Below are positions 12,006 through 32,367 of a DNA stretch of 59,617 nucleotides, piece by piece. The number at the start of each line of letters is the position of its first letter. Positions within the stretch are counted from its first letter, which is position 1. This DNA comes from a virus (taxonomy: Duplodnaviria; Caudoviricetes): the IMG/VR virus record IMGVR_UViG_3300032285_001005, positions 1 through 59,617 of that record. One strand, given 5' to 3'. Below the pieces are notes generated by a model, which was not told the DNA's origin, did no database searches, and was given only the letters and a program-made list of their open reading frames with translations. A program made the translations under genes and the position numbers.

Positions 12006-12006
12006 G

Positions 12007-12471
12007 TCACGCCCTTACCATAAGTAAAATGCCGATAACGGCCATTCCAAACAACAACCCACCAACAATCGAAGACACAAAAATCAAATCTTTACGATTC
12101 TCTTCCTGCTCTTTAAGCTCCGCTGCTGCCTGACGTGCTGCTTCTTTACGCATCTCAATCACCTCGCGCTGAATAGCATCCCAAGCTGGTCTACCATATT
12201 GGCCGATAAACATATTCTTAACGTTCTGCTGCATCTCCAAGGCTTTTTGTTTAGCAGCATATACTTTAATTGCCTGAGCTTCGAACTCAGCCTGAGACTG
12301 AAACATCCCCTTTTTACGGGGAGATGAGGCCAAAGTAACAATCTGGCCCACCCTTCCGAAGAGATTGCTGACTTTTTCTGCCGTATCCATAACGTCTTGG
12401 CCCGCATCAACTGCGGACTTAATAGAGTTATAGATCGCCGTAGCGCCAGCAATAAGGGTAATCGGGTCCAC
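12007..12471 (-). CDS. Membrane-anchored coiled-coil protein
   Basis: MDPITLIAGA start; C-terminal TM helix. Confidence 0.7.
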   Translation of the reverse strand: MDPITLIAGATAIYNSIKSAVDAGQDVMDTAEKVSNLFGRVGQIVTLASSPRKKGMFQSQAEFEAQAIKVYAAKQKALEMQQNVKNMFIGQYGRPAWDAIQREVIEMRKEAARQAAAELKEQEENRKDLIFVSSIVGGLLFGMAVIGILLMVRA

Positions 12472-12711
12472 TTACTTACAGCCCCACCGTTTCCGAGCAG
12501 CTTTACCCCTCTCACCTGTCCAACTTTGCGATCTAGCGCAAAAAGACTTGTGACGGGGATTATCCGTGTCCTTCGTAGGAGCTTTCAAGTTGCTTCCCGT
12601 GGCACGGTTATATTTGGCACGGCCCTTCGCTGTCAGCCCGCTGCCTTCTTTGACAGAGAGCTTCTCGCCACGACCAACAGAAAGGTTTGGACCCTTCTTA
12701 CGCCCCGCCAT
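12472..12711 (-). CDS. Small basic conserved phage protein
   Basis: GLTAKGRAKYN...GSNLKAP...RHKSFCAR...RWGC. Confidence 0.75.
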   Translation of the reverse strand: MAGRKKGPNLSVGRGEKLSVKEGSGLTAKGRAKYNRATGSNLKAPTKDTDNPRHKSFCARSQSWTGERGKAARKRWGCK

Positions 12712-12902
12712 TAGCGGACCTTGAACATCTGGGAGCGCATCATCAGACCGAAGCCACGAGCCTGCATGTCACTCTTGGTAGGTGCGCCGGGAACAGCAAA
12801 TTCTTCCGTCTTCTTATACGGAACGTTGCCTTGGCTCTGAACGCTCATCGAGGTTTCAGCCGTAGGAGTAATGGTCTTATCGCGCTTGATTGGGTATGCC
12901 AT
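12711..12902 (-). CDS. Small protein with a C-terminal RGxG motif
   Basis: ARGFGLMMR; coupled to the next gene. Confidence 0.7.
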   Translation of the reverse strand: MAYPIKRDKTITPTAETSMSVQSQGNVPYKKTEEFAVPGAPTKSDMQARGFGLMMRSQMFKVR

Positions 12903-12913
12903 GTCAGAGGTCC

Positions 12914-14782
12914 TTATGAGTAAGCATTGCTTTTTGTAGCTACAGAACCACGTGGGATGTACTTCCTACGTTGGTAATCAATTCCTGTAGTATACACCGG
13001 ATTCTGCGAAGTTTCGAGTGCTGCCACAGTTTGGGGAGCAGGGGCAGGATATGAAGCCTGAGGAGCAGTTTCACCTTTATTCCCCCCACCACCGTAGCTA
13101 GGAGTAAAGGAGGAGGGTGGAGAAGACCGGAAACCGTTGTCTGACGATTTAGGTTTGAACAAGGAGGCAATACCTTCGCCAGCCGCTTTCAAGGGATCGC
13201 TAAACAAGGCTGTCCCAAGGTCCTTCGAGAAGAACTCAACTTGTGGGAATCCGTTAATCGTTGAAATCCGAGATTGGACCTGTGACAGATCCCCGCCTGT
13301 AAACTTCTCGGCATAAGACTCTGGTGTGTCACCTGACACAGAATTAGCAACATCCGGGTCATTTGGGAAGTTAGGGTTAGGTTGGTTGTACAACGCTTCC
13401 TTTGCCTTTGTATTGTCTACAAAAGGAAGGTTGCCCTTGGCCCAATCTAACGAACCCGTCGTCTCAGTTTTTGTTTCCGGGGCCGTATAAGCTACTTCTT
13501 CAGTGGCATCATTCATCGTGCCATTAGCTAATGCAGCATACTGGTCTTTAGGTGCGTAGCTTCCTGCTTCCATATTAGATGGAGTAGGGGTAGGTGCTTT
13601 CCCGCCATCCAAAATAGACTGAAGCGTGTCAGCAAAGTTCTTAGGCGCAGAAGCCGCTACTGTAGCAAGGTTGTTCACTGCCGAGCCTACGCCTGTGGCA
13701 AGGTTCTGAAGGCTTGCTACTAAAGTAGGGGAAGTAGCAGGAGTATTTTGATAGGCTTGAGTAATCTTGTCCGTAAACTGGCTGGCAGGGGCGTCTGGAT
13801 CTCCGCCATTGTTACGAATAGCCCGTATAGCCTTGTCTAAACTTCCGTTATACGCCTTAGAGAGAGCCTCCGCCGCCGGAGCATTGGGGTTATTAAGCAA
13901 CGCCGCTGCGCCTTTTTCGCCTTGGTTATACCCAAAGCCGATTTCCCCAGCCGTTGGCGCACGGCCTATGTCACGAGCCAAGTCCTTAGCAATATCCGAT
14001 TCATAAGAAGCCGCAGCACGAGCAACTGCGATAGGGTCGTTACGGAGATCGTAACCCGGACCTACAATGCCATATTGCCTGCCGACATCTTCAGACATCT
14101 GGAAAACGCCAGATGGGCCAGAACTTAATTTAAATGCCTTTGGATTCGTCCCATAAGTGCTTTCAACACCTATTGTTTTACCCAAAGTACCTTCAGGAAG
14201 GTTCATTTCCTTTTCTAAATCCGAAAAGTCAGAACCCGATGCCCCCTTCGCCGTGTAACCCGCAAAGCGAGCCTCATTAGACATAGGAAGACCGCCCTTT
14301 GGTCCAGAGAACGTGCCTTCCCTGTTAAGTGGGACATTCGTAATCGTAGGGGTAATCTGTCCGCCCATGATGACAGCACGGTTGCCCTGATCGTCTTTCC
14401 GAACATACGGGGCAGGAGTATTCATGCCTACAATCGTAGGTACGCCAAATGTCTGTGGCGTTGGATTGTACGAAGTAGGATATGACGTAGCAAGGTTCAA
14501 ACCCTGCGCTGCAAAGTAAGGAAGGCTTACCGGAGCAGGGGCCGCAGGTTGTGCAGGTTGTTGTACAGGTTGAGCCTGCTGCTGTGGCACAACGCGCTGA
14601 TCAAGAAGATTACCCGTCGAAGGATCATACGAACGACCTCTGGATTCGTTGGTATTATTCATACCGCCTTCGTTGCCAGCACCAGAATTACCCGTGTAGC
14701 CAGCCCCGCCGTAATCGTTTACCTTGGCTTCGCCGTACCCACCGTAATTACCCCAGCCGCCACTGTATCCTTCGTCAGACAT
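12914..14782 (-). CDS. Virion-associated lytic transglycosylase (SLT domain) in a low-complexity protein
   Basis: GVESTYG (catalytic Glu), GVFQM and GYNQG motifs. Confidence 0.75.
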   Translation of the reverse strand: MSDEGYSGGWGNYGGYGEAKVNDYGGAGYTGNSGAGNEGGMNNTNESRGRSYDPSTGNLLDQRVVPQQQAQPVQQPAQPAAPAPVSLPYFAAQGLNLATSYPTSYNPTPQTFGVPTIVGMNTPAPYVRKDDQGNRAVIMGGQITPTITNVPLNREGTFSGPKGGLPMSNEARFAGYTAKGASGSDFSDLEKEMNLPEGTLGKTIGVESTYGTNPKAFKLSSGPSGVFQMSEDVGRQYGIVGPGYDLRNDPIAVARAAASYESDIAKDLARDIGRAPTAGEIGFGYNQGEKGAAALLNNPNAPAAEALSKAYNGSLDKAIRAIRNNGGDPDAPASQFTDKITQAYQNTPATSPTLVASLQNLATGVGSAVNNLATVAASAPKNFADTLQSILDGGKAPTPTPSNMEAGSYAPKDQYAALANGTMNDATEEVAYTAPETKTETTGSLDWAKGNLPFVDNTKAKEALYNQPNPNFPNDPDVANSVSGDTPESYAEKFTGGDLSQVQSRISTINGFPQVEFFSKDLGTALFSDPLKAAGEGIASLFKPKSSDNGFRSSPPSSFTPSYGGGGNKGETAPQASYPAPAPQTVAALETSQNPVYTTGIDYQRRKYIPRGSVATKSNAYS

Positions 14783-14785
14783 ATC

Positions 14786-17170
14786 TTACCTCGCCTTAGT
14801 AGCGTTGACACGTTCCAGAGCTATGTTAGCCCTAAGCTGCGCCACATCTTCCATGGATTGAACCCGCTGGTGGTCCATCTGAGCCTTCTGCTGCATCTTC
14901 TGCGCGTCAAGACCTAACCGAGCCTGATCGATCTGACCCTTCTGCTGAAGCTCTTGAGCTTTCAACTGCAAGCCCTGCTGCTGAAGCTGGATCAAAGGAT
15001 CTGGGCCAGCAGGCGGAGGAGCAAGCTGCTGCATCAAACCAGCCATCATCTGAGCCTCTGCCTTGGCAACCTCAATCTCCATCTCATGTGCTTGAAGCTG
15101 GATATTGATACCTTGTTGTTGCATCTGCAAGACAACCTGCTGCTGTGCAGCCAAGGACAGATGTTCAAGGACATGGGACAACAAAACCCCATAAACCGCC
15201 GGAGATGTCTGGATCAAAGGCAGCTTAATGAACGTCAAATGCGTCTGGATATGGGCCAAATGATCTTGGTCCGGGAACACTTTTAAAGGATTACCCCCAG
15301 AAGGTATTGTCAACGACCTTGCATTCTCCAAAGCAGGGCTTTCAGGCATCGCTTGTGGAGGAGGGGGAAGAACGAGGTCGATGTCAGTGACACCGAGAGC
15401 CGAGTACATCCGTCGGTAAGCCTCGTACATATTGTGCATCTGAGGAGCTTGCTGGGCCATCTGCAATTGCTGCTGGGCCAGCGTAATCCGCTGCGTCATC
15501 GAGAAGATATTCGGGTCCGACACAGGTAAAATGTCTACTTTACCGTCAAAATCAGCCGCCTTAATGCTGGCTTCCGCCCCAGTTACCTCATAAGGGTACT
15601 CTGGAGGCAAATAATCAGCAAAAATGTCTGCAAGAAGCTTCAATTCCTGCATCTGAGCATTGTGCAACCGCTTGTGGACCGCTGACATCACGCGGCTGCC
15701 GCGTTCCAGCATCGCAATCGTCGTGCCAACAGGCATTTCGTTGTTGGAATCGCCCATTCCAAGGTCAGTCGTGCCAATAAACTTCTGGGCGGCGTCAATA
15801 CAGAAGCCAAGAAGCTGGAAAAGAGTCGCTGACGGCTCTTTATATGGCAAAGGCATCAGGCTGGAAGCGATATCGCCGCCCGGAACGTCAACATCACGCC
15901 ACTCACCGGGTTGAATCGGGGTTTGGTCCTCGACCCTTAGACCTTTGGCTTTAAAACCAGCCGGAAGGTTAGATAAAGTTCCAGCATCAATAAGCTGACG
16001 AAGAATAGCGGTAGATGTACGAGACAGATTACCAAGAAGATGAACGAGTCCAAAGCCGTAGAAGCCCATACCCGGCAAGAATTTGTAATGGACAAAGTAT
16101 TGTTTCTTGAGTTTCTTGGGATCATCTTCCCGATAATTCCTACGAATAGATAAAACAACCTGAGATTTTTTCTCATAGGTTACAATGTAAGGTAATTGGA
16201 GACCAGTTTCTTCACCGCTCTCGTCTTTATCTTCAAAACCTTCAATGTCCAAGTAGCAATGACATTCATGCAAGGTATATTCATTTACGTCAGCAGGTTC
16301 TTCTACACCACGAATACGGTCCATCCGTTCTTGGATGATGTCCGTATCACCTGTGACAGGCTTGCCAAGGTGAACATCGCGATAGAAACCGCTCAACTGA
16401 AGCTTGCGAAGTTCGTTAGGTGAGTACCGTAATACGTGTGTTACCCGCTCTGCGGTCAGAAGATCGCGAGCAGAATACGGAACAATGAGATCCTTAGGTA
16501 AAATGTATGGGCTAGTGCCTCTTTCAAGATAGCTATCATAGTACACCTTCTTAAATGCACTGCCGCCGTAACCAACATAGAAGAGCATCTGATCAAAATC
16601 AGGGTCGTACTCTTCCATGACCTGAGTGATCTGGTAGTTCATATACGTCTTGACACGGTTAGCCTGTGCTTCCTTTTCAGGAGTCACCTTCCCGATTATC
16701 ATGGTACGGACTGGACCACCTGCTGGCAGAAGCTCCTTGTAAGCCTGCGCTTGGAACTGTGTCACGGCCTCATTCAGGATTGGATGCGTGACACCCGTGG
16801 CACCGTCAAACGGTTCTGTACGTTCCTCGTACTCCATACCAAGAAGGACCATGCCCTTCTCGTACTGGTCTTTCCATTCTTCCCGGCCCGTGTCATCGTC
16901 CTCGATGTCGCTATCCAAGGCGTCAACGATCTTAAACAGGACGGCATCTTCCAAAAATTCGGCTAGATTGTCCCCGAACTCCGGCTCTTGGCCCGGTTCT
17001 ACGTCTGAAAACTCTTCTTCAGAAGCCTCTTCCGTTTCTACGGCTGAGTCCTCATTACCCCTTTCAGGCCCTGCTCCATTACCGCCATTACCCATGGCAT
17101 CATCGCGTTCACCATTCAAAGTTCCAGAATAAATGGAACTGTCGATGTTATTGTAAGGAGAATTAGCCAT
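14786..17170 (-). CDS. Portal protein
   Basis: 794 aa directly after TerL; HPILNEAVTQFQAQAYKELLP and GFYGFGLVHLLG. Confidence 0.9.
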   Translation of the reverse strand: MANSPYNNIDSSIYSGTLNGERDDAMGNGGNGAGPERGNEDSAVETEEASEEEFSDVEPGQEPEFGDNLAEFLEDAVLFKIVDALDSDIEDDDTGREEWKDQYEKGMVLLGMEYEERTEPFDGATGVTHPILNEAVTQFQAQAYKELLPAGGPVRTMIIGKVTPEKEAQANRVKTYMNYQITQVMEEYDPDFDQMLFYVGYGGSAFKKVYYDSYLERGTSPYILPKDLIVPYSARDLLTAERVTHVLRYSPNELRKLQLSGFYRDVHLGKPVTGDTDIIQERMDRIRGVEEPADVNEYTLHECHCYLDIEGFEDKDESGEETGLQLPYIVTYEKKSQVVLSIRRNYREDDPKKLKKQYFVHYKFLPGMGFYGFGLVHLLGNLSRTSTAILRQLIDAGTLSNLPAGFKAKGLRVEDQTPIQPGEWRDVDVPGGDIASSLMPLPYKEPSATLFQLLGFCIDAAQKFIGTTDLGMGDSNNEMPVGTTIAMLERGSRVMSAVHKRLHNAQMQELKLLADIFADYLPPEYPYEVTGAEASIKAADFDGKVDILPVSDPNIFSMTQRITLAQQQLQMAQQAPQMHNMYEAYRRMYSALGVTDIDLVLPPPPQAMPESPALENARSLTIPSGGNPLKVFPDQDHLAHIQTHLTFIKLPLIQTSPAVYGVLLSHVLEHLSLAAQQQVVLQMQQQGINIQLQAHEMEIEVAKAEAQMMAGLMQQLAPPPAGPDPLIQLQQQGLQLKAQELQQKGQIDQARLGLDAQKMQQKAQMDHQRVQSMEDVAQLRANIALERVNATKAR

Positions 17171-18633
17171 CAGTAGTAAACCCTTTTCCCGACCTTCTCT
17201 TCCCGCTCAATTACAAAGTCTTCGGGATGTGACAGGAATCCTCCCTGCCGAAACCGCATCAAAGCCTGTGTAGCCGCGTCACAGTGGTCATCATGTTCCC
17301 CGAACGGAAATGCCGCCATCTCTTCAATGACTTCTTCAGCCCACGCAGATTCAGGATACCACACAAGTCCTGCTTCAAACAATGGGGCAACGGAATTCAT
17401 TCTCACATGTTTATCATTTCCACGGCTCGGTGTAAAATTTACTACCGGAATGCCCGTGGTCCGAAGTTCTTGGGTCAAGGGCATCCCCGCCGCCTTGGCT
17501 TCGATCAATACCGTTTCTGGGTCCCAGTACTTGTATTCGTCGAACGCGATTCTCTTCAAGTCTGGGAATTCCCACCGCCCCTTCTTGGCATCCAGAAGGA
17601 TGACGTTAGGAGGACTTTCCTCTGTCGGATAGAATACCCCCCACGTCTGGATAGACGTAAAGTCCGAGGTCCGAGTTTTCAGGTACGCGGTATCGTAGCT
17701 CTGCATCACGTAATGCAGTCTTGGGATATCGGCCTTATTCCACTTCATCCACCATTCACGCTTAATAACTGCCGCCGTGTCAGAGGTTGGCTTTTGAAGA
17801 TACTGGGCGTTCCACTTACCAATACTGATCGAAGCCTTGATCTTTTCAAGTTCTTCAAGCTTCCAGTATTCCGGCCACAGTGGTTCGCCGTTATCAAATA
17901 TCGCAGGAAATTCAACGACTTCCCACTGGTCGGCCTTCGGATCACGGGCAGACTGACGCAACAGACGAGCGGTGAGATCGTTCTCACCCCACCGTGTCAT
18001 GACCAGAATAATCGCACCACCCGGTTGTAAACGCTGACGAGGGCCACCTTGATACCATTCCCACGCATTTTCCAGAGCAGTAGGTGAAAGAGCATCTTGC
18101 TCCGAATGCGGGTCATCGACAATGAACAAATCTGCACCACGACCTGCAATGTTGCCGCCCACACCAGAAGCGTAGTACTCACCACCATTGTCCGTCTCCC
18201 ACCGATACGCCGCCTTGCTATCGGATCTTAGCTTGACATCAAAGACCCCCTGATAGTCTTTAGTTTCCATCAGGTTCTTAACTTTACGACCAAAACGAAC
18301 AGACAGATCCGCCGTATGGGTTGCCTGCATGATCTTCAGGTCAGGACGCCGACCGATCATCCAAGCAGGGAAAAGGTAACTTGCAAACTCTGATTTAGTA
18401 TGCCGGGGTGGCATATTAATTATCAGGCGCTTGAGTTCTCCTTTTGCGACCCTTTCTAGCTTTTCTGCGACAATCCGATGGTGCCTACCTGCAATGAAGG
18501 ACGGCCACATCATCTTTACAAAGTCTAGAAAGTTCTCTTTTGCTTTGTCCCGCTTCTCTAAGCCTGCGGCTCTTTCCAGAAGTTGGGCGTACCGTTTAAG
18601 GGCTTCATCCGGGGCAAGTGTTTTAGTTGTCAA
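17170..18633 (-). CDS. terL: Terminase large subunit
   Basis: INMPPRHTKS Walker A, IVDDPH Walker B, nuclease SYDTA...HDDHCDA. Confidence 0.95.
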   Translation of the reverse strand: MTTKTLAPDEALKRYAQLLERAAGLEKRDKAKENFLDFVKMMWPSFIAGRHHRIVAEKLERVAKGELKRLIINMPPRHTKSEFASYLFPAWMIGRRPDLKIMQATHTADLSVRFGRKVKNLMETKDYQGVFDVKLRSDSKAAYRWETDNGGEYYASGVGGNIAGRGADLFIVDDPHSEQDALSPTALENAWEWYQGGPRQRLQPGGAIILVMTRWGENDLTARLLRQSARDPKADQWEVVEFPAIFDNGEPLWPEYWKLEELEKIKASISIGKWNAQYLQKPTSDTAAVIKREWWMKWNKADIPRLHYVMQSYDTAYLKTRTSDFTSIQTWGVFYPTEESPPNVILLDAKKGRWEFPDLKRIAFDEYKYWDPETVLIEAKAAGMPLTQELRTTGIPVVNFTPSRGNDKHVRMNSVAPLFEAGLVWYPESAWAEEVIEEMAAFPFGEHDDHCDAATQALMRFRQGGFLSHPEDFVIEREEKVGKRVYY

Positions 18634-18636
18634 AGG

Positions 18637-18918
18637 TTAGCTCTTCTTGTTCCAAGCGCGATTCTTAGATTGTGACATGACACGGAGGTTGGATCTCGCA
18701 TTGCTGCCACCAGAGCGAACGGGCTTGATGTGGTCGACATCTTTGCCGTCGCCCTTGCTTACAAGACCTGCTTTTGCAAGTTTTCTGCGAGCTTCATTTC
18801 GCATTCCGCGCTTCTTTATGTTATCAGGGGTAGCATTGTAGCCGCGATCCATCTTTTTGATCTGCGATGGAGTACGATGGGAGCTTGGGTCGCGCTTCTC
18901 TTGTTTCACGTGAAACAT
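18637..18918 (-). CDS. HNH endonuclease (terminase-associated)
   Basis: KGDGKDVDHIKP...GGSN...NLRV...NR; start moved to ATG 18918 (MFHVKQ). Confidence 0.8.
   Translation of the reverse strand: MFHVKQEKRDPSSHRTPSQIKKMDRGYNATPDNIKKRGMRNEARRKLAKAGLVSKGDGKDVDHIKPVRSGGSNARSNLRVMSQSKNRAWNKKS
18902..18917. promoter_or_regulatory. parS: parS site TGTTTCACGTGAAACA
   Basis: Perfect 16-bp palindrome equal to the bacterial chromosomal parS consensus. Confidence 0.8.
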
Positions 18919-18951
18919 CCCGTCCGGTAATAACTGTCGTTGCCGTGACAC

Positions 18952-18980
18952 AATATACAACGAAATAAGCCTTGCGGCAA
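18952..18980 (-). promoter_or_regulatory. Sigma70-like promoter TTGCCG-N17-TATATT for the HNH-terL operon
   Basis: Correct spacing; about 35 nt upstream of ATG 18918. Confidence 0.5.
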
Positions 18981-19003
18981 ACCACAAGGTCAGAGGTCAG
19001 AGT

Positions 19004-19495
19004 ATGGCTATATCACAACCATTGGATTTGTACGACGTAGCTCGGTTCTTTTCCAGAGTTGCTGTCAAGAAAGAACGTGAATGTTGGACGTACAATAAAT
19101 ACCTAAGCCCAAAAGGGTACGGGATGATCAAGATCGGTGATAAGAAATGGTACGCTCATCGGTTAAGCTACACATTCTTTAATGGACCTATCCCAGAAAA
19201 TTTGGTTGTCCGGCATAAGTGCGATAACAGGTGTTGTGTCAATCCCTATCATCTGGAGACAGGAACCCCTACCGATAACGTCATGGACAGAAATATTCGT
19301 GGCAGAACGGCACGGGGAAGTAAGAATGGTCGTGCGAAATTGTCCGAGGAACAAGTTATAGCCATCTTTAAGGACAAGAGACCATGTATTGTGATCTCTC
19401 AGGATTTCCCCGTCTGCCCGGATATGGTTAGCAGGATTAAGCGGGGAGTGGCTTGGGGGCATGTCACTGGTGCCACGCCCCCAAGAAATCTTTAG
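19004..19495 (+). CDS. HNH homing endonuclease (free-standing)
   Basis: ECW...GYG...AHRLSY...VRHKCDNRCCVNPYHLETGTPTDN plus C-terminal HTH-like region. Confidence 0.88.
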   Translation: MAISQPLDLYDVARFFSRVAVKKERECWTYNKYLSPKGYGMIKIGDKKWYAHRLSYTFFNGPIPENLVVRHKCDNRCCVNPYHLETGTPTDNVMDRNIRGRTARGSKNGRAKLSEEQVIAIFKDKRPCIVISQDFPVCPDMVSRIKRGVAWGHVTGATPPRNL

Positions 19496-19974: not shown

Positions 19975-20332
19975 TGCCGACTCCTATGTTTGCGGGATTT
20001 TAAAATACCAAATTTACAGGGGGCAGGCTAGGGGGACCCTGTGACACAGGTATGAAAAGGGGGTCGGCCCGATTATTTGAAATTGCTCATAATCTGGAAA
20101 AAACAGGGTCTAAAGGTAAATCCTACGCAAGCCGCCCGAAAAAGGGGGGCCGAGGTCCGTGGCACGATGTCATCGCGAAACCAAAAAAGGGCCAAGGGAC
20201 CCGAACCATGTCACGAGGCCATGTCACGGCGGACCTAGGAAATTAAACCTAGGACCTAGGATCATATACCTAATGACATGACGCACGGTCATCCGTTAGG
20301 TAAGGTGACACGTCGGTGTCACTGTCACGAAC

Positions 20333-20385
20333 CGATGAACTCGAAACGGGTTCATCGATCAAATGAACTCGAATCCGGTTCATCG
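20333..20385. repeat. Two tandem palindromic units ATGAACTCGAA-N3-GGTTCATCG, period 28
   Basis: 20335-20357 and 20363-20385. Confidence 0.85.
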
Positions 20386-20435
20386 TGTCACGCCATCCGT
20401 GACACGGCTATTATTACGGTAACGAAACGAGTTGT

Positions 20436-20641
20436 GGCATGACAGTTTTTGTCATCCCTTAGTCGATTGTTACGGAACCGAAACGCCCAGCTCCGGGTCT
20501 TTTCTTGTAAGTCATTGATTTTATTAAATAAAAACCGATTTTCTTAAAGTCTTGTTTTTATGTGTCACGGTACCCATGACACGGTCAAACCGTTTCTAGG
20601 GCGGTTTTTGTGGTTTTTAGGGGCATGACAGTTTTTGTCAT
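20436..20641. repeat. Two identical 20-mers GGCATGACAGTTTTTGTCAT (palindromic, operator-like)
   Basis: 20436-20455 and 20622-20641. Confidence 0.85.
20508..20520 (-). promoter_or_regulatory. IHF consensus site AATCAATGACTTA
   Basis: Matches WATCAANNNNTTR with an adjacent AT tract. Confidence 0.6.
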
Positions 20642-20858
20642 GGCATCTCGGACCTGTGACATGGTAAATTTTAGGGCGTGGCAGGGCGCGAGGGGCTTAG
20701 TCTTATTTGACGGGGCGTGGCAGACCGGAAAGCGTGGCAGGGGCATTGTTAGGACCTATTTGACAGAACGTGACAGTTGCAGTTGACACGGGAACAAATC
20801 AGCTTTAAACGGGAATTGCACTACCCAATTAAACCCCTAGAAAGAGAAAGACAGAAAG

Positions 20859-22190
20859 ATGAAAATTGACGCAGCAGCAAGATCACGCTTACGGTCTGCC
20901 ATTACATCTCACACAGGTTGGCAAGACTACAAAAGAGCCACAGGTAAGGGCATCGCAGACTATCAGAAAGAAGACTACTTAGCAGCATGTCACGCCCTAC
21001 AGATTGACGCACAGGGCATCGTTGACGCAGCGCAGACAGAGGGGGCAGACATGAGAAAAGAACGGACAAAAGACCGTTTCGAGGTAAATGCTTTGTATGA
21101 CCGTTTCATTGCTGTTTTAGACCGTGTTGAAACAAAAGAACGGACAAAATGCGACGACATTTTTCGCAGCATCAGGCAGCAAGGCAGTGGCATGGCGACA
21201 GATGCACAATACAACGCTATTGACCGTATCGTGACACAGGCAGAAAGCACAGAACAGAAAGCACAGACATTTGACGCAGCCCCCGCAGCGCAACCCGTGG
21301 CAGCGCCCCCCGCAGCGTCAAATGCTCTCTATGACATAATGCGCGAGGCAGTAAGGGCAGACCTTGAACCATTAGTGAAGGGCATTGTCACAAGGGCGCT
21401 TGACGGGGTAGCAACGGTCAAGATTGAGTTGCAGCAGCAGGGCGCAACAGTAGGGGCGTCTGACGGTCATCAGCACCCTATGTTCACAACGCTTTGCAGG
21501 GCGCTTTCTGCACGGCAGGTTGACAGCTTCGCCCCTAACGTCTGGATAGCAGGCCCCGCAGGTAGTGGTAAAACACATGCTGCAAAGACGTTTGCAAGCG
21601 TGGCAAAGCTTGCTTTCTGGTACAATGGGGCGCTTTCAATGCCCCATGAGTTGCTAGGGTTTATTGATGCAGCAGGGCATTATCATAGAACGCCCTTCCG
21701 TGAAGCGTTTGAACATGGGGGCGTTTACCTATTTGACGAGGTTGACGGTAGTGACAACGCAGCCCTGTTAGCCCTTAACGCAGCCCTAGCTAATGGCAGA
21801 GCAAGCTTTCCAGACGCACAGATTGAACGACACAAAGACTGTCGGATTATTGCGACAGCTAACACATGGGGGCTAGGCGCTACAGCAGACTACGTAGGGC
21901 GCAGCAAAATTGACGCAGCGTTTTTGTCACGCTTTCCAGTACGTCTGCCATGGGATTATGACGCAGCCCTTGAGGTTGCTATCTCTGGTAATGCTGATTT
22001 TGCAAGACGAGTTCAGGCAGCACGTGAGCGTGCAAGGGCAGCAGGTCTTAAGGTCTTGATTGATCCCCGCGCAACCATGGCAGGGGCAGCGTTAATCGCA
22101 GCAGGTCTGACACATGACGAGGCAGCAAGCTTAACCTATCTTGCCAACCTGTCACCTGATCAGAAAAAGCTTGTCGAGGGGCGCGCATAA
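20859..22190 (+). CDS. MoxR/CobS-like AAA+ ATPase
   Basis: GPAGSGKT, YLFDEVD, IATANT...YVGRSKIDAAFLSRF. Confidence 0.88.
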   Translation: MKIDAAARSRLRSAITSHTGWQDYKRATGKGIADYQKEDYLAACHALQIDAQGIVDAAQTEGADMRKERTKDRFEVNALYDRFIAVLDRVETKERTKCDDIFRSIRQQGSGMATDAQYNAIDRIVTQAESTEQKAQTFDAAPAAQPVAAPPAASNALYDIMREAVRADLEPLVKGIVTRALDGVATVKIELQQQGATVGASDGHQHPMFTTLCRALSARQVDSFAPNVWIAGPAGSGKTHAAKTFASVAKLAFWYNGALSMPHELLGFIDAAGHYHRTPFREAFEHGGVYLFDEVDGSDNAALLALNAALANGRASFPDAQIERHKDCRIIATANTWGLGATADYVGRSKIDAAFLSRFPVRLPWDYDAALEVAISGNADFARRVQAARERARAAGLKVLIDPRATMAGAALIAAGLTHDEAASLTYLANLSPDQKKLVEGRA

Positions 22191-22229
22191 TTGCGCCCCC
22201 AACCAACCCTAGAAAGAGAAAGAAAGACC

Positions 22230-23102
22230 ATGCAACAGATTATTCTAGACACTATTGAGACCTGCCCCGTTCAAGGTAAAGACGTGTTTCTTATAGGTGA
22301 CATGCCAAGCTTCGCTAACAGAGCAGACAGCGTGCCTGAGAACAACGACAGCAGGTCAAGTTGTCGTTCTGGTAACGATTGGACAGGTAACGTGTCTTAT
22401 TCTGATGCTGTCAAGATGACACGTGAGGGCGATTTGAAGGGCGTTGCCATGTCTGATAAATACCTGCAACGCTTCGAAGCATTGGCACCCATGCGAGGGG
22501 CGTGGCAGGTACGTGATGACGTGGCGGGGGGCGTACCTAACGTTCAAGCTTTCTTAGCAGGTACGCCCTTGACAATGCGTCGACGTGAGCGAGTTGCGCT
22601 TGAGACTGCGCCCCTTGCTGTCGCTGTTGACCTAGTGTCATCTGCTACTGTTTCAGCAGAGCATTTAAAAAAACGGGGCGCTTTAATCCTAGCCCTTGTA
22701 AGGGCGCTATCAGCAACCCGCCCTGTCGAGTTATGGGTAGGGGGCAGCGCAACCCCTATGAACAAGAGACAAGACGGGGCGTGGCATGTCTGGACACGTT
22801 TAGACACAGCGCCCCTTGACCTTGCAAGGGCAGCGCATGTGATGACCTGCCCCGCTGTTTCGCGTGGCATGATTTACGCAACCATTACCGACGAGGCAAA
22901 GGGCAGCAATGATCTGCATTGGCCCTATAGCAACCACGCATGGTCAAGGGCTAACATGCGCCCTGTATTGTCTCGCGTTATTGGTTCAGGTGACATGTTA
23001 ACCATTGCAGCGCCTCACACTAATGACGAGCTAGTTAACAACCCTGAACAATGGTTTGAGCGCATGTTAAAAGAATTCGGGGGGCTTGATCATGACGCCT
23101 AA
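22230..23102 (+). CDS. vWA-like partner of the AAA+ ATPase
   Basis: AGGVPNVQAFLAGTP; beta strand plus DLVSSATVS (degenerate MIDAS); ATG 22230 follows a leader shared with the AAA gene. Confidence 0.6.
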   Translation: MQQIILDTIETCPVQGKDVFLIGDMPSFANRADSVPENNDSRSSCRSGNDWTGNVSYSDAVKMTREGDLKGVAMSDKYLQRFEALAPMRGAWQVRDDVAGGVPNVQAFLAGTPLTMRRRERVALETAPLAVAVDLVSSATVSAEHLKKRGALILALVRALSATRPVELWVGGSATPMNKRQDGAWHVWTRLDTAPLDLARAAHVMTCPAVSRGMIYATITDEAKGSNDLHWPYSNHAWSRANMRPVLSRVIGSGDMLTIAAPHTNDELVNNPEQWFERMLKEFGGLDHDA

Positions 23103-23310
23103 TCAAGCGCAAGCTTTAGGTCTGGACATAAGACCTGACGGGGCGAAAGCTTTAGTTGTTCTTTACAAGGGCGCAGCTTTCGCATGGGTAGAAAGATCAC
23201 AGCGTGACCGTCACCTATGGCGGGGCGTGACAGTATCAGGGGCGCTGTTTCACGCTAGGACTGTTTCGGAGTTAATCGATACCTTAGCAGCCAACCTGCC
23301 CCCGTCTTAA
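23092..23310 (+). CDS. Hypothetical protein
   Basis: Overlaps the upstream stop; same sequence style; ends before a terminator. Confidence 0.65.
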   Translation: MTPNQAQALGLDIRPDGAKALVVLYKGAAFAWVERSQRDRHLWRGVTVSGALFHARTVSELIDTLAANLPPS

Positions 23311-23603
23311 TTGTCTGCCCCTGTCGTGTCATCAAGCCCCCCGCTTTCGGGGGGCTTTTTTTGTTCCGTGTCATCTAATGGCACAGGTACAAGCGCCAAG
23401 CGATAGCCGAAAACATGGGCAATATGCGCGACCGTCGACAAGCGCAGATCGGTATTGATTCCTACCTTTGTCATCGTGGCATGTGACAGACCCGCCAGCT
23501 TCAGGAGTCGCCGTTGTGACAGCTTGTGCTTGTCGCGTTCAGCCAGAACCCACTTGGAGAACTGGGAGGTAGACTTCAAAAATATTAAATCCATCACGCG
23601 CAC
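23307..23603 (-). CDS. XRE-family HTH regulator
   Basis: LSQRRLLKLAGLSHATM...DLRLSTVAHIAHVFGYRLALV. Confidence 0.75.
   Translation of the reverse strand: MRVMDLIFLKSTSQFSKWVLAERDKHKLSQRRLLKLAGLSHATMTKVGINTDLRLSTVAHIAHVFGYRLALVPVPLDDTEQKKPPESGGLDDTTGADN
23334..23362 (+). terminator. Intrinsic terminator of the AAA/vWA operon
   Basis: AAGCCCCCCG-CTTT-CGGGGGGCTT plus T run. Confidence 0.88.
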
Positions 23604-24028
23604 TCATAATCCATAACCGAGCGATTTCGGTCTAGCTTTTCGTTTATGTGGTCCAGCATGTCTTGCCACGGCACAGGATAGCTCAACACTAAATCCGCTT
23701 CGGGCGGTTGCTCACTGGTGTTCAAGGCCAATATGTCACGACAGTTGTACACGTGGATTAACTCCTGAGCCGGATGACTTATGACATTCCAGACATTGCA
23801 ATAGTGTTCACTGCGTTTGTACTGCCACGATATCTGGGACGGACGCCATAGGCCCTCGGTCTTGAACTTCTTGGTCTTGCAAACTTTTAACTCGATCCAA
23901 AACTCTCCGAACTTTGTGGCACCATTGATATCCGGCATCCCTGTGCCGACCCGTGCCTCAAGCCTCGTCCATTCCACTCCCGTCGGAGTCGCTTTCTTCA
24001 AGCTCTGCCACATCTTCGCCTCGGTCAT
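23594..24028 (-). CDS. PD-(D/E)XK nuclease (VRR-NUC / Holliday junction resolvase-like)
   Basis: MTEAKMW...RLE...GMPDING...WIELK...RPSQISW. Confidence 0.8.
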   Translation of the reverse strand: MTEAKMWQSLKKATPTGVEWTRLEARVGTGMPDINGATKFGEFWIELKVCKTKKFKTEGLWRPSQISWQYKRSEHYCNVWNVISHPAQELIHVYNCRDILALNTSEQPPEADLVLSYPVPWQDMLDHINEKLDRNRSVMDYECA

Positions 24029-24662
24029 CAAAATCGAGTATCTCGGCATCATCCCTCACTGCGGTTGTCATAACTTCCTTGATATCATTATCAGGGATGT
24101 CGATGACATTGGTAGAACTAGGCAAGGCCAGCATCGGGAACTCAGCTTGAAGCCTGCGAATCTCGTTCATGACTTCGTCCCGTGACATCTGGTCAATCTT
24201 ACCTACCAAGATTTCAGACCGTGACACATACAAGCCTGCCGCTTGTCCACGGGATTTCTCAGCCGCGACCGCCGCTGTGAAGTTTCCCTTCTCCAAAGCC
24301 GCATCTCTGATCTCAGCCAGCTTGGTGACATGGCTATCAAAAGTCACATCTGCGCGATGTGCTAACGCTTCTCTGATCTCTTCCACTCGTTTCACCACCC
24401 TTGGAAAGTATTTCTCATTCAGGAGTAACCAACCCAAGACCTTGGGCTTCTTACAAGTGTATCCCGCACGACGCACGGCTTCGGTCTGTGACAGATTCCC
24501 GCCCGCATACAATCGGGCGAACTCTTCCTGCTTGGGCGTTATACCATAAACCCGCCGTGTGTTTGCCACGGGCTTCAGAACTTTGTGAAGCTCCACGGGC
24601 AACGGCCTGCGGATGTCTTGCACTGGTCTGCCACGCTTCTTCTGTTTCAGGAATGACGCCAT
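23958..24662 (-). CDS. terS: Terminase small subunit
   Basis: ITPKQEEFARLY...SQTEAVRRAGY HTH; AAVAAEKSRGQAAGLY. Confidence 0.8.
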   Translation of the reverse strand: MASFLKQKKRGRPVQDIRRPLPVELHKVLKPVANTRRVYGITPKQEEFARLYAGGNLSQTEAVRRAGYTCKKPKVLGWLLLNEKYFPRVVKRVEEIREALAHRADVTFDSHVTKLAEIRDAALEKGNFTAAVAAEKSRGQAAGLYVSRSEILVGKIDQMSRDEVMNEIRRLQAEFPMLALPSSTNVIDIPDNDIKEVMTTAVRDDAEILDFDDRGEDVAELEESDSDGSGMDEA

Positions 24663-29182: not shown

Positions 29183-29381
29183 CATAACGATGTGCAAAGG
29201 AGATACATGTGTGTTGTCGGAAACCTGTTATCGGTCCCCTGCCAGTGGCACGGAACCACACCCAACTAACCAGTCGTGGTTCATTGATGAGCCGTACTGG
29301 CGGGACGGGACCAACCGCCCAACAATCTGCGACTACTATTGGGAAGTCCGTAAAAGAAAGCCGGAGGTACACAGTGAATAG
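29175..29381 (+). CDS. Cys-rich phage protein
   Basis: MPDITMCKG..C.....CYR...QSWF...CDYYW. Confidence 0.75.
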   Translation: MPDITMCKGDTCVLSETCYRSPASGTEPHPTNQSWFIDEPYWRDGTNRPTICDYYWEVRKRKPEVHSE

Positions 29382-29601
29382 ACATGCTGATCCGATTACG
29401 ATTGATCACATCATTGCCTTACGCAAGCGCGTGGCAGAACTAGAGCGGCAGGTCGAGAACGCCATGTCGTGGGTGATTGCTAAGAAGAGAGAAGAAGAAA
29501 GGATGTTGGGGGCTTTGAAGCGGGTCGCGGATAATGCCTATGACAATCAGATGTTTCATCTGGGCTTGAATACTTTCAAGATGGAGGAACCAATACCATG
29601 A
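29374..29601 (+). CDS. Hypothetical coiled-coil protein
   Basis: GGAGG RBS before GTG 29374. Confidence 0.6.
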   Translation: MNRHADPITIDHIIALRKRVAELERQVENAMSWVIAKKREEERMLGALKRVADNAYDNQMFHLGLNTFKMEEPIP

Positions 29602-29717
29602 GAAAGTGGATCGTGCGCCACGAAGAAGTGGGCAAAGACATCTTAGCCTTGTGGGAGAACGACAACGGCGACAGGTGGTATGTGCAGGTCGTGATTAACG
29701 GGGAGGTGCAGTGGTGA
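29598..29717 (+). CDS. Hypothetical protein (39 aa, not in the ORF track)
   Basis: GGAGG RBS, ATGA coupling; MRKWIVRHEE... Confidence 0.6.
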   Translation: MRKWIVRHEEVGKDILALWENDNGDRWYVQVVINGEVQW

Positions 29718-30043
29718 TGGATAAAACAGAACAAATGGCTGCGGACATTGCTATGGCAATGAATGGAGGCGAATGGAAGGATGGCGATTGGTATGCCGAA
29801 GGACATCGTCAAGCATGGATAAAGGCGGTCAAACCATACTCTGATGAGATTGAACGGTTGCGGGGTTCATATGAAGACTGCATCAATGCTGTTGATACTA
29901 TAATCAATGACGGAATGACTGAGCCAGCAAAATTTGCCAAAATTCAACACAGTGGGTTTACCGCGTATAACTACATGATCGCAATGGCGGAAGACATAAA
30001 AGATGAAATTAAAAAACGGGCTGCACTGAAGGAGGGTGAGTGA
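29717..30043 (+). CDS. Hypothetical protein (DEIERLR...ALKEGE cassette)
   Basis: Coupled ORF. Confidence 0.7.
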   Translation: MDKTEQMAADIAMAMNGGEWKDGDWYAEGHRQAWIKAVKPYSDEIERLRGSYEDCINAVDTIINDGMTEPAKFAKIQHSGFTAYNYMIAMAEDIKDEIKKRAALKEGE

Positions 30044-30345
30044 TGCACGACGAAGTACAAATAACAAAGTTATTTTTGGAAAAGTTAAAGCCATATGATT
30101 TTAAGGCTACATTGGGTGTCTTTGAAAGTGGCGGTTATGTCCATGTCAACGTACAGGTGATTGGCGACAACAAAGAACACATAGACACATTCATCAATGA
30201 AACATATCAAGCCATCACGGATGGTGAAGTTATCTTTTCCAGAAGGCTTCCTGAATACGAAACAGTTAAAGATTTTGAAGCAAATGAATTAAAATATGGC
30301 GGTGGCTACAGGTTTTCCGTTAAAGCATTGAAGGAGGGTGAGTGA
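30040..30345 (+). CDS. Hypothetical protein (ALKEGE end)
   Basis: Coupled ORF. Confidence 0.7.
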   Translation: MMHDEVQITKLFLEKLKPYDFKATLGVFESGGYVHVNVQVIGDNKEHIDTFINETYQAITDGEVIFSRRLPEYETVKDFEANELKYGGGYRFSVKALKEGE

Positions 30346-30605
30346 TGGATATTGTAGAAAAATTGCGTTTGGTTGACTGTACGTTTTGGTATAAGCCACT
30401 TGGTCATGGGATTGATACAGACTTGGATGTTCCCGCTTATGAATTGGGAGCGTTGTCACATGAAGCCGCCGATGAGATTGAACGGTTGCGGGAAGCATTA
30501 GCCGATCTTGTGGCTGTCCAAAATGGGCCGCCATTAGTGACGTACACTGAGGCATGGGATGCAGCGATGGAAAAAGCGTATGCCGCACTGAAGGAGGGGG
30601 AGTGA
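30342..30605 (+). CDS. Hypothetical protein (MDIVEKLR...EAADEIERLR...ALKEGE)
   Basis: Coupled ORF. Confidence 0.72.
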   Translation: MMDIVEKLRLVDCTFWYKPLGHGIDTDLDVPAYELGALSHEAADEIERLREALADLVAVQNGPPLVTYTEAWDAAMEKAYAALKEGE

Positions 30606-30796
30606 TGGAAATATCATTTATTGATTGGGTAAATTCATTTCCAGAAACTCAGGAAGAGGCATCTAAAAGAATGACACTAACTCGCGATCAAGTTGAGAAG
30701 ATTGCTGTAGAAACAATGATGAGAGTATTAGAAGAAGATAGTAGCGATAATAAATTGAAGGAGAGTGAGGATGGCAATCAAGAAACACATCCGTGA
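30605..30796 (+). CDS. Hypothetical protein
   Basis: Starts at the ATG of the junction repeat. Confidence 0.65.
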   Translation: MEISFIDWVNSFPETQEEASKRMTLTRDQVEKIAVETMMRVLEEDSSDNKLKESEDGNQETHP

Positions 30797-31007
30797 CACA
30801 AAAGAACTATTGATTGATTGCGGAGTAGATGTAACCACGGTCGAGATTTCCAGAAAGCATTTGAAGTTTTTTGTACAGATCGGATCACACAAGCATCTAT
30901 TTGTACGATCTGCCAGCCCATCCGACAGTCGATCTACGCTGAACTTCAAGGGCGACGTGAGACGATGGATTAACGAAGTGAAAGGAAAGAACGATGGACG
31001 GGTTTAA
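30771..31007 (+). CDS. HicA-like protein
   Basis: RKHLKF...SASPSDSRSTLNFKGDVRR. Confidence 0.5.
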   Translation: MAIKKHIRDTKELLIDCGVDVTTVEISRKHLKFFVQIGSHKHLFVRSASPSDSRSTLNFKGDVRRWINEVKGKNDGRV

Positions 31008-31101
31008 AGATCTTTTTTATATGTCATTGGGTTTAACCATGGGTATTGGATTCGGCGTCATCCTTGTAATCTATGTTGCTAAGATAGTCTTCGGGTTCTG
31101 A
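30994..31101 (+). CDS. Small membrane protein (35 aa, not in the ORF track)
   Basis: MDGFKDLFYMSLGLTMGIGFGVILVIYVAKIVFGF; AAAGGA RBS. Confidence 0.6.
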   Translation: MDGFKDLFYMSLGLTMGIGFGVILVIYVAKIVFGF

Positions 31102-31105
31102 TGTC

Positions 31106-31330
31106 ATGGATGATCTGATCAAAAAGATAATGTCCTATCCAGTCTACGATGACAGCTTGGCACTATTCTATGAAAAATACCCTGAACCATATTGGCGCGT
31201 AGAGTTTTGCAACCGCGCCGCCCATTGTGTCAACTTGGGTGAAGCCACAGGCGATTACATTGCCGAAGGAAAAACCATAGAAGAAGCCTTTGAAAATCTC
31301 ATTAAGGTGCTGGACAATGAACAAGCGTAA
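31106..31330 (+). CDS. HicB N-terminal-like protein
   Basis: YWRVEF...IAEGKTIEEAFENL. Confidence 0.45.
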   Translation: MDDLIKKIMSYPVYDDSLALFYEKYPEPYWRVEFCNRAAHCVNLGEATGDYIAEGKTIEEAFENLIKVLDNEQA

Positions 31331-31596
31331 GTTGCTGACAGATCGCCAGAGTCTGGTACAATGCGGGAATGGAAAACGTGCCATGCGACTATCTGGCGGT
31401 AGACTGGAGCGGCATCCCATGGGTGCGGTTCGAGGAGTGCTATCGGGTGGACGGGAAGATATACATAGGACCAAGGTCCGAGGGCCGAGTTCCAATGACA
31501 ATGGAGATGGGTCGCTGTCGTGACAGTGACACGAAGAGCTATCCAAGATATCGGATAGGTGAGCGTGAATGGATATGTATTTTGAAAGGAAAATAG
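31317..31596 (+). pseudogene. Possibly frameshifted hypothetical gene (or intact ORF 31369..31596)
   Basis: ATG 31317 frame MNKRKLL joins QIARVWYNAGMENVPC... by a +1 shift near 31338. Confidence 0.35.
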
Positions 31597-31597
31597 G

Positions 31598-31789
31598 ATG
31601 CACGATACCCTTTTAACGATGATGTGTATTTGGGCGGCGGTCAAAGTCATGCAGACCATCAAGGAAATCTGGGAACATTTGGGATATCAGAACGAGACTA
31701 GGCTTCGGGATCAGATACGAGACCTGAAGAAAGAACTGGCCGCACTGAAGGGCGAGCCAGAGGAAAAATCATTTACACTTCTGGATTGA
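31598..31789 (+). CDS. Hypothetical membrane/coiled-coil protein
   Basis: Hydrophobic N-terminus; spanin-like architecture possible. Confidence 0.6.
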   Translation: MHDTLLTMMCIWAAVKVMQTIKEIWEHLGYQNETRLRDQIRDLKKELAALKGEPEEKSFTLLD

Positions 31790-31793
31790 TGGC

Positions 31794-32150: not shown

Positions 32151-32151
32151 C

Positions 32152-32367
32152 ATGGGATCATACGACAACCGAGAAAGATTTAATCGCGTACAGGATAAGT
32201 TCTACGAGAACTTAAAGGACCAAAAGCAATGGGCAGATTACGTCCGCACCAAACATGAGTTGGGAACGGCGGGGCCGAACTCCTTAAAGGCTAAGATCAG
32301 TCGTGGCAATATTGCCCGCAGTAAAAAAGTACCTGTATCTTTACCGAAGATGTCTTGGGAAAAATAA
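32152..32367 (+). CDS. Hypothetical protein
   Basis: Closely packed ORF. Confidence 0.65.
   Translation: MGSYDNRERFNRVQDKFYENLKDQKQWADYVRTKHELGTAGPNSLKAKISRGNIARSKKVPVSLPKMSWEK

Follow-up and report, generated by a model that had tools for sequence, protein, structure and literature searches.

A probable exchangeable MoxR ATPase module with its own word usage in a phiM5-related tailed phage

Why does a single three-gene operon in a tailed phage genome lack short DNA words that are common in the rest of that genome? The operon occupies 20859-23310 on the forward strand of the IMG/VR virus record IMGVR_UViG_3300032285_001005, which was analysed as a whole (59,617 bp, hereafter the window), and it encodes a MoxR-class AAA+ ATPase, a DUF7192 protein and a 72-amino-acid protein. 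An earlier note, made from the letters alone, had proposed that these genes were purged of restriction- and methylation-type words because they enter the host first and carry an anti-defence machine. Here, we argue, at a probability of about 0.6, that 20392-23357 is instead a self-contained module, exchangeable among phiM5-related tailed phages, in which a divergent allele with an allele-wide word bias encodes remodelling proteins of the MoxR/vWA type. The module would consist of an operator-rich upstream region, the ATPase, a vWA-like DUF7192 partner, the conserved 72-amino-acid protein and a terminator, and its word usage would be a property of the whole allele, acquired in the lineage in which that allele evolved.

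Word usage of the operon

All of the word counts that raised the question were reproduced over the 2452 nt of 20859-23310. With expectations taken from the remainder of the genome, CCGG was observed 0 times (5.7 expected), GCCG 0 times (13.2 expected), CGGC once, at 21513 (7.9 expected), GANTC 0 times (4.5 expected), GGA 10 times (37.1 expected) and TCC 5 times (34.8 expected), and GGA and TCC are 4-7 times rarer here than elsewhere in the genome. Some palindromes are kept, as the earlier note had it, with 6 copies of GATC, 8 of AAGCTT (2.0 expected) and 1 of GAATTC, and the missing words reappear past the terminator (GCCG at 23406, GANTC at 23457 and CCGG at 23770). Sliding-window k-mer z-scores, the check that had been suggested for the idea, confirm that the depletion is significant and that no other part of the 59.6-kb genome stands out as strongly in composition. 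Windows over the operon are the top outliers for both 3-mers and 4-mers (z 4.2 and 4.8), the operon's own distance (z 7.1) is unmatched by any of 265 non-overlapping windows, and counts as low are reached for GGA|TCC in 3 of 1144 sliding windows and for GCCG|CGGC in 11 of 1144, all of them overlapping the operon.

The bias is more than a matter of codon usage. In 2000 synonymous shuffles that kept the protein sequence and the operon's own codon counts, none was as low as the operon for GCCG (shuffle mean 8.8), CGGC (10.2), GGA (27.7) or TCC (13.4), and the absence of CCGG (mean 3.7, P = 0.0135) and GANTC (mean 4.1, P = 0.0045) was also unusual. GGA encodes 0 of 55 glycines, TCC 0 of 44 serines, CCG 1 of 36 prolines and CTC 1 of 70 leucines, and GCA makes up 51% of alanine and ACA 52% of threonine codons. 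Other words are enriched over the same shuffles, among them AAGCTT (8 vs 1.0), GGGC (33 vs 15.5), GGGCGC (10 vs 1.6), GCGC and CATG, at a GC content of 0.52 vs 0.49. The complementary pairs GGA/TCC and CCG/CGG are depleted to similar degrees. Hence, the observation is real and highly significant, and the bias resides in the DNA, is about equal on both strands and exceeds codon usage. As a property of the allele, we would describe it as depletion of GGA/TCC, CCG/CGG, GCCG/CGGC, CCGG and GANTC together with enrichment of GGGC/GCCC, GCA, GCGC and AAGCTT.

Two simple causes were ruled out. Overlapping or antisense genes do not account for the bias, given that off-frame stop triplets occur at or above the genome rate (TGA 1.39, TAG 1.14, TAA 1.06, CTA 2.18); the antisense open reading frames (ORFs) in the operon are all short. 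Deamination of C to T fails as well, because the operon shows neither an excess of AT nor a loss of CG.

Another candidate cause is selection acting on the mRNA or on how it is translated, in which Shine-Dalgarno-like GGA/GGAG and leader-pairing pyrimidine tracts would be avoided to tune expression. The depletion is confined to the transcribed coding part and ends at the terminator, both leaders are free of GG where backbone genes mostly have AAGGA/AGGAG-type ribosome-binding sites, and sense-strand TC triplets are low relative to the genome rate (TCC 0.14, CTC 0.29, TTC 0.58, TCT 0.70), CTC without a corresponding loss of its complement GAG (0.29 vs 0.95). However, the like depletion of the complementary pairs points to DNA rather than to one RNA strand, the codons in use (GGG, CCC, CTA, TTA, AGA) are unlike translational optimisation, and the loss of GCCG/CGGC and the excess of GGGC and AAGCTT are left unexplained, and we regard this cause as very unlikely.

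Separate ancestry of the block

Comparison with the closest relative found, the IMG/VR contig L010, shows that the operon module is present as a divergent allele that has not shared the history of its flanks. TerL and g19492 on the left are 97% and 98% identical to L010 in amino acids, and the helix-turn-helix (HTH) protein, g23594 and TerS on the right are 95%, 100% and 94% identical, whereas the three operon genes between them are only 72-75% identical in amino acids and 63-65% in nucleotides. Synonymous divergence (dS) of the flanking genes is 0.2-0.6; in the operon genes synonymous differences are saturated (proportion of synonymous differences, pS, 0.77-0.84) and non-synonymous divergence (dN) is 0.22-0.25. 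Protein divergence of 25-28% beside near-identical flanks excludes silent purging and marks a different allele.

The borders of this allele are sharp. In a 60-nt identity profile against L010, identity is mostly 75-98% from 19460 to approximately 20350, the sequence is unalignable over 20360-20860, identity stays near 65% through the genes and it returns to 83-100% from 23360. Contigs of two other studies (X3 and X4) agree with the flanks, break off at 20392 and pick up again at 23325, and the GC-rich sequence in between is unlike that of the window; contigs in runs X3 and X6 have loose ends at 20392. The third study (X6) holds pieces of the window's own allele with 1-5% of letters differing, next to flank pieces with 6-7% differing. 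The block therefore has the features of a mosaic module, namely a sharp drop in identity, two conserved flanks and breakpoints that recur in the contigs of other studies. A Markov model trained on 21400-22800 only returned 20562-23355 as the maximal compositional segment. Composition and ancestry thus switch at the same places, the left hairpin and the right terminator, so that the anomaly marks an exchanged allele, and the exchange occurred by recombination at or near conserved hairpins at both ends. The corresponding allele of L010 is biased in the opposite direction (CCG|CGG 155 vs 71 expected from its flanks; GC 0.59 vs 0.50), and in the relative L004, with a TerL 91% identical to that of the window, the N-terminus of the ATPase is 68% identical and rich in GCCG and TCC.

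The earlier note had itself raised transfer from a donor of the same bias as the alternative to its idea. This was largely borne out, in that the anomaly is coextensive with the segment of separate ancestry; the donor was not found. Several observations weigh against our reading, and the first is that none of 974 windows (2.5 kb each) across the collected loci carried the same signature: the best 3-mer signature correlation among them was 0.63, and the lowest GGA/TCC ratio 0.35 vs 0.19 in the operon. By protein identity, the nearest alleles are P0013 (95%), P0039 (86%), P0024 (81%) and P0002 and P0003 (76-75%). A metagenome donor scan gave one partial relative only (L007, identical to L004), a search with the 17-mer leader gave two viral contigs, neither of which matched any of ten query proteins, the ATPase and the DUF7192 protein included, in local tblastn, and a DNA search of a phage collection gave phiM5 only (67.8% identity over 14% of the query). 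As no donor was found, it is by inference that we have the bias inherited from a donor lineage. The second is that the trimer depletion spans the coding part and spares the upstream 467 nt of the cassette, where GGA and CGG densities are normal, which is unlike what a plain genome-wide donor signature would predict.

The third concerns the relatives, in which the operon is a strong 4-mer outlier too. Of 10 rows tested, all with a TerL of 76% identity or more and two of them nearly duplicating L017, it ranks as the top outlier in 9 (z 5-11); the remaining one, L018, has z 2.0. The operon has fewer distinct 6-mers than the flanks in all 7 relatives tested (z -2.3 to -9.1), and GANTC occurs 12 times vs 54 expected from own-codon shuffles in the operons of 11 clade members, 10 of which have 0-2 copies there though their flanks carry the word. 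Codon usage of the operon is atypical in several relatives, and the preferred and avoided words differ from one to the next. These observations point to a pressure that goes with the module or with where it sits, beyond chance ancestry. Finally, the mutual binding of the ATPase and the DUF7192 protein, like any target on which they would act, is presumed.

In a set of 49 loci free of duplicates, the window lies at the very end of the range for GGA|TCC, with an observed-to-expected ratio of 0.20 from flank codon usage and 0.32 from own-codon shuffles. A family-wide avoidance of GGA/TCC was considered and rejected, the operons of these 49 loci being only mildly low (median ratios 0.80 and 0.87, taken without control genes). 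GANTC is absent from the whole phiM5 genome (L006, 44 kb), and in the window's clade from the operon only; five other loci (L022, L025, L027, L029 and L044) have an operon without GANTC, and there the flank-based expectation rounds to 0.

The operon is not the only mosaic segment relative to L010; others are 19004-19495 (forward strand), 11508-14782 and the portal gene. The HNH endonuclease gene at 19004-19495 is 59% identical in amino acids, the gene 12914-14782 61% and the portal 80%, with neighbours at 94-100%. None of these segments is a compositional outlier like the operon.

Restriction sites and order of entry

The proposal that restriction or methylation words were removed did not stand up, and a site-by-site purge of restriction sites in this genome is not supported as the cause of the word loss. 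Most of the signal comes from the trimers GGA/TCC and CCG/CGG. In double-stranded DNA, GCCG and CGGC count as a single word, which remains once, and GGA/TCC remain 15 times, so that no cleavage target built on them has been eliminated. GCCG/CGGC and GGA/TCC are the exceptional words, and none of them is a classical restriction site. Many ordinary 4-mers are equally skewed, lying more than 4 standard deviations from the synonymous-shuffle expectation in both directions; examples are AAGT/ACTT (2 vs 15), GCAC/GTGC (11 vs 29) and CACC/GGTG (6 vs 19). Maximal-order Markov expectations inside the region are low (CCGG 1.8, GCCG 4.3, GANTC 1.1), which indicates that the 4-mer losses largely follow from the trimer losses.

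The lengths of word-free stretches tell the same. The CCGG-free stretch at the operon measures 3045 nt and a longer one of 3747 nt lies at 29361-33108; the GANTC-free stretch of 3086 nt exceeds the next longest (2799 nt) by little, and stretches of 2.6-2.8 kb without GANTC are present elsewhere. Only the gaps in GCCG (3257 nt vs 1542 nt for the next longest) and in GGA|TCC are exceptional. Two CCGG sites (20493 and 20725) lie within the upstream region of the cassette, between the supposed genome end and the genes.

The backbone, for its part, avoids restriction sites to an extreme degree. In the backbone outside 20392-23325, CCWGG occurs 0 times vs 99 expected, 24 of the 64 six-base palindromes are wholly absent (total Markov expectation 212), including TCCGGA, CTGCAG, CGATCG, TGGCCA, AGCGCT and GGATCC, and CCGG and GGCC are at approximately 0.65-0.73 of expectation. 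The cassette has 2 copies of these 24 palindromes vs 13.3 expected. It shares the palindrome taboo of the backbone and has thus lived under a similar restriction landscape, so that the factor that sets it apart lies elsewhere.

The model of the earlier note, that the cassette enters first and that selection stripped it of the host's restriction or methylation words so that it lasts until its MoxR/vWA machine disables a defence, draws one argument from the cultured phage phiM5. There, the homologous pair (genes 64 and 63) comes before all other genes when one moves inward from the right 357-bp terminal repeat, TerL adjoins the left repeat and the circular order equals that of the window. Because this synteny matches, a physical genome end within 19975-20400, beside the operon, is plausible. 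The clade-wide shortage of GANTC and the shared palindrome taboo also fit the model, as do the 5 palindromic words that are depleted beyond codon usage in the operon vs 0-2 in six control gene groups, but this excess over controls is weak in the relatives. First-step-transfer DNA of phage T5 provides a precedent for sites that are absent only from the first-entering DNA. Published counterparts, as far as their accounts go, are a Murciavirus leading region without a restriction-modification (RM) motif (PMC12455610) and the Bas54 MoxR ATPase that is reported as necessary against a predicted defence (10.1101/2025.11.20.689424). Against the model stand the retained trimers and the retained GCCG/CGGC, the comparable CCGG- and GANTC-free stretches elsewhere, the two upstream CCGG sites, the enrichment of the palindromes AAGCTT, GCGC and CATG, and a protein divergence that silent purging cannot produce; the physical end and the early expression that it needs are, moreover, assumed. 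The four runs compared with the window consist of contigs, and no pile-up of molecule ends was reported in them. We consider the model unlikely.

A variant of first entry replaces cleavage by graded avoidance of a short immunity motif, such as the 3-nt protospacer adjacent motif (PAM) of a clustered regularly interspaced short palindromic repeats (CRISPR) system, with fewer motifs giving fewer targets. Depletion of a trimer alike with its complement, strong yet incomplete, is how PAM avoidance would look, the operon may be near a genome end, and CRISPR spacers are preferentially acquired from first-injected DNA. But we know of no CRISPR type with a TCC/GGA or CCG/CGG PAM, many other words are skewed too and the backbone shows no avoidance of GGA (ratio 0.96), which makes this variant extremely improbable.

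Proteins of the operon

The first gene (20859..22190, forward strand) encodes a MoxR-class, CobS-like AAA+ ATPase of 443 amino acids, an identification by the earlier note that we can support from motifs, profiles and folds. The protein has a helical N-terminal domain of approximately 200 amino acids, for which no match was found, an Ala/Pro linker and an AAA+ core with Walker A (GPAGSGKT) and Walker B (VYLFDEVD) motifs. Residues 228-359 match Pfam AAA_5 (expectation value, E, 4.5e-8), the protein matches phrog_249 (E 4e-48), and its profile matches midasin and, weakly, CobS (9ujv, E 9e-6) among PDB sequences. In Foldseek searches with an AlphaFold2 model (mean predicted local distance difference test, pLDDT, 80.8), the best folds were CbbQ2 (6l1q_A) and NorQ (9qh4/9qh6), with template modelling (TM) scores by target of 0.71-0.74 and E of approximately 1e-11. 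The pLDDT falls below 50 at residues 134-151. The linker (21276-21317) varies in length and sequence, and X6 contigs have loose ends on both sides of it.

The second gene (22230..23102, forward strand) starts at ATG 22230 and not at TTG 22191 of the longest ORF, and encodes a compact, vWA-like protein of 290 amino acids that matches Pfam DUF7192 (E 8.5e-19) and phrog_1909, a family that is almost entirely viral and was not mentioned in the literature searched. It had been taken for a vWA partner of the ATPase, and the predicted fold leans towards this and the sequence does not. The AlphaFold2 model (pLDDT 93.1) has its best PDB matches in the VWA domain of NorD in NorQD complexes (9qhd/9qh6) and in the MIDAS (metal-ion-dependent adhesion site) domain of Rea1, at probabilities of 0.90-1.00 (NorD 0.97-1.00) but TM scores of only 0.27-0.36. 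In BFVD, phage vWA and CobT-like proteins come next after DUF7192 proteins (E 2e-5 to 5e-4). At E up to 0.001, every PDB and BFVD match outside DUF7192 that carries a name belongs to a vWA/MIDAS or CobT-like protein, several BFVD rows being unnamed or uncharacterised, with probabilities of 0.87-1.00 but TM scores of only 0.21-0.39 and root-mean-square deviations of 8-14 Å. The canonical MIDAS pattern DxSxS...T...D is replaced by a VDLxSS consensus at the expected loop in 41 sequences, where one Ser is invariant and the Asp is less than 90% conserved. Pfam gave DUF7192 only, with no vWA sequence-profile match, and a profile of the protein against PDB sequences came back empty at E up to 10. From the models, the protein may work like a vWA adaptor, yet it would not be filed as a regular vWA member.

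The two genes tend to travel together. Of 80 rows in which the ATPase was matched, 61 have a DUF7192 match no more than 2.5 kb away from it, the rows being 76 viral loci, earlier loci and the window, with some contigs counted twice. The closest folds, the NorQ/NorD and CbbQ/CbbO pairs, would have the ATPase form a hexameric ring onto which the DUF7192 protein docks as an adaptor, and we infer that the two would act jointly, soon after infection, to remodel a particular protein complex or bring it to maturity, in all likelihood one of the host.

The third gene (23092..23310, forward strand), whose start overlaps the end of the DUF7192 gene, had been offered as a possible accessory. Its conservation in 7 clade members shows it to be a genuine gene: in 6 relatives an orthologue comes directly after DUF7192, and 18 columns are invariant over the 7 sequences. 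Its 72-amino-acid product gave no Pfam match above threshold (one chance-level match at E 0.015), nothing was found for it in PHROG or NCBIfam, and PADLOC matched none of the three operon proteins. A three-chain complex prediction of the ATPase and the DUF7192 protein with the 72-amino-acid protein as partner scored 0.00, a result that speaks neither for nor against a complex.

The CobS-like character of the ATPase invites a metabolic reading, in which a viral CobS/CobT motor hijacks host CobN for cobalamin synthesis as an auxiliary metabolic gene and the composition is unrelated to defence. The phrog_249 label is porphyrin biosynthesis, many homologues are named cobaltochelatase CobS by the Joint Genome Institute, the profile match to CobS 9ujv is in its favour, and a cobalamin role has been proposed for phage cobST, according to the account in PMC8651126. 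However, the closest ATPase folds are CbbQ and NorQ rather than CobS, the partner is a 290-amino-acid DUF7192 protein without a canonical MIDAS and not a 600-amino-acid CobT, NCBIfam gives no CobS or CobT match and the ATPase has its additional 200-amino-acid N-terminal domain. The neighbourhood of the operon contains no gene of cobN size, CobN not having been searched for in other parts of the window. This reading, too, has very little probability in our estimation.

Control region and boundaries

The left boundary of the exchanged block is a GTGTCAC..GTGACAC hairpin (20383..20407, forward strand), and the upstream control region of the cassette (20392..20858, forward strand), which is unalignable with L010, begins within it. 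An operator-like cluster of TGACA/TGTCA inverted repeats at 20306..20640 holds 5 of the 11 such pairs in the window, counted as TGACA..TGTCA or TGTCA..TGACA, and inside it lie the hairpin and two identical 20-nt copies of GGCATGACAGTTTTTGTCAT at 20436 and 20622. The 8-mer TGACACGG has three forward-strand copies in the upstream region (20400, 20577 and 20784) and further sites at 23366 (reverse) and 25133 (forward); its 17 copies genome-wide compare with 2.07 expected, and 0 of 100 shuffles reached 17. In the window phage and its relatives, phiM5 included, most gene groups contain approximately twice as much TGNCA as codon usage explains, and TGACACGG/TGNCA may be a family-wide regulatory or recombination motif. 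A TTGACA box lies at 20783, but a scan for sigma-70 consensus sites found no excess (7 promoter-like sites vs 5.0 +/- 2.1 in shuffles) and established no promoter. Directly left of the block boundary, at 20328-20383, is a tandem 28-nt repeat with copies 82% identical. One contig from the probable source sample lacks the 179 nt of 20328-20508, a sign that the control region may vary in length.

The first two genes share the leader CCCTAGAAAGAGAAAGA, as had been noticed from the letters. Exactly two copies occur, at 20835..20851, ending 7 nt before the ATG, and at 22207..22223, where the identical 17-mer ends 6 nt before ATG 22230; both are on the forward strand, purine-rich and free of GG. A copy with 2 mismatches is found at 40428, and 0 of 100 shuffles gave 3 matches. 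This third copy (40428-40444) precedes a SNF2-type helicase gene (phrog_62, ORF 40451-41923, forward strand), which is inverted relative to its neighbours. The right block boundary is an intrinsic terminator (23334..23357, forward strand) with a 10-bp stem, 8 G-C pairs and a T run.

Genomic context

The window is a complete IMG/VR record of the direct-terminal-repeat class. Both record ends have 123 bp in common, an overlap that identifies the record as a circularised assembly and makes coordinate 1 uninformative on the physical ends.

The operon stands amid the packaging genes. Portal (14786-17170), TerL (17170-18633) and an HNH protein (18637-18987) are on the reverse strand, followed by the second HNH endonuclease, the forward-strand gene compared with L010 above, and to its right by g19492 on the reverse strand. 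A noncoding stretch of approximately 0.9 kb separates g19492 from the operon, beyond which an XRE-type HTH protein (23307-23603), the phrog_2165 protein g23594 (23594-24052) and TerS (23958-24662) are again on the reverse strand. TerL and the ATPase gene are divergent, with approximately 2.2 kb between them. With its upstream control region, three genes and terminator, and with neighbours of opposite orientation on both sides, the operon is as self-contained and inverted as had been claimed.

Related copies at approximately 50% identity occur in Alphaproteobacteria genomes or metagenome-assembled genomes (Hyphomicrobiaceae and Xanthobacteraceae). Together with phiM5, a phage of Sinorhizobium meliloti, they hint at an alphaproteobacterial host range for the phage family.

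Discussion

Where a stretch of DNA is strikingly poor in restriction-type words, the cause can be the exchange of a module, and a comparison with a close relative settles the matter quickly. For the viral family DUF7192, the analysis offers a structural reading, that of a compact vWA-like partner of a MoxR-class ATPase. Given that phiM5 is a cultured relative with the pair at a conserved site by its genome end, the role of phage 'CobS-like' ATPases can be tested there.

The exchanged allele leaves us with a puzzle, in that the operons of the closest relatives are compositional outliers with a reduced k-mer vocabulary, yet with differing words. Their bias could reflect position- or host-specific selection on an early module, and the difference in word preferences among relatives leaves room for the idea of the earlier note in a weaker form. 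In its boldest version, the cassette would be the leading, first-expressed and often swapped anti-defence module of the whole phage family, the MoxR/vWA machine with its 72-amino-acid accessory would dismantle a host immune complex, and DNA exposed before protection would by degrees lose the short motifs that DNA-targeting immunity reads and develop host-specific operon 'dialects'. We hold this version to be quite unlikely.

Comparison with known systems

The closest structural counterparts of the operon are NorQ/NorD and CbbQ/CbbO, which give the best matches for both proteins; the two operon genes are adjacent. Unlike NorQ/NorD, the operon is viral, its ATPase has the extra helical N-terminal domain of approximately 200 amino acids, its partner is compact, with low TM scores and no DxSxS MIDAS, and a third small gene is present, and there is no nitric-oxide reductase or Rubisco gene among the annotated neighbours.

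Phage cobS/cobT pairs likewise consist of a phrog_249 AAA+ ATPase adjoining a vWA-fold protein. Such pairs are described as widespread in tailed phages (PMC8651126), and their function as uncertain, though they are treated as auxiliary metabolic genes (PMC11288001, as far as its account goes). The operon differs from them in its DUF7192 (phrog_1909) partner, which is approximately half the size of CobT, and in the missing NCBIfam matches.

In Autographiviridae, leading regions are described as variable and rich in anti-defence genes, and sensitivity to Type I RM in Murciavirus as set by the absence of motifs (PMC12455610). The operon resembles these regions in being a variable module from which short words are missing and which plausibly adjoins a genome end, but its complete loss of double-stranded sites is limited to CCGG and GANTC and its main signal lies in trimers. 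The MoxR ATPase gene of Bas54 is described as one that the phage cannot do without against a predicted defence system of its host (10.1101/2025.11.20.689424); the likeness is that of a phage MoxR-type ATPase, in another phage and host, and the description gives no partner or mechanism.

A further system is that of phiM5, in which genes 64 (a putative ATPase) and 63 are orthologous to the first two operon genes (61% and 38% amino-acid identity), in the same order and divergent from TerL across the genome end. GGA/TCC is not depleted there (47 vs 52.7 expected) and the GC content of the phiM5 operon is below that of the backbone, but, as in the window, no other region of the genome departs as far in composition as genes 64 and 63 (z 3.6-4.1).

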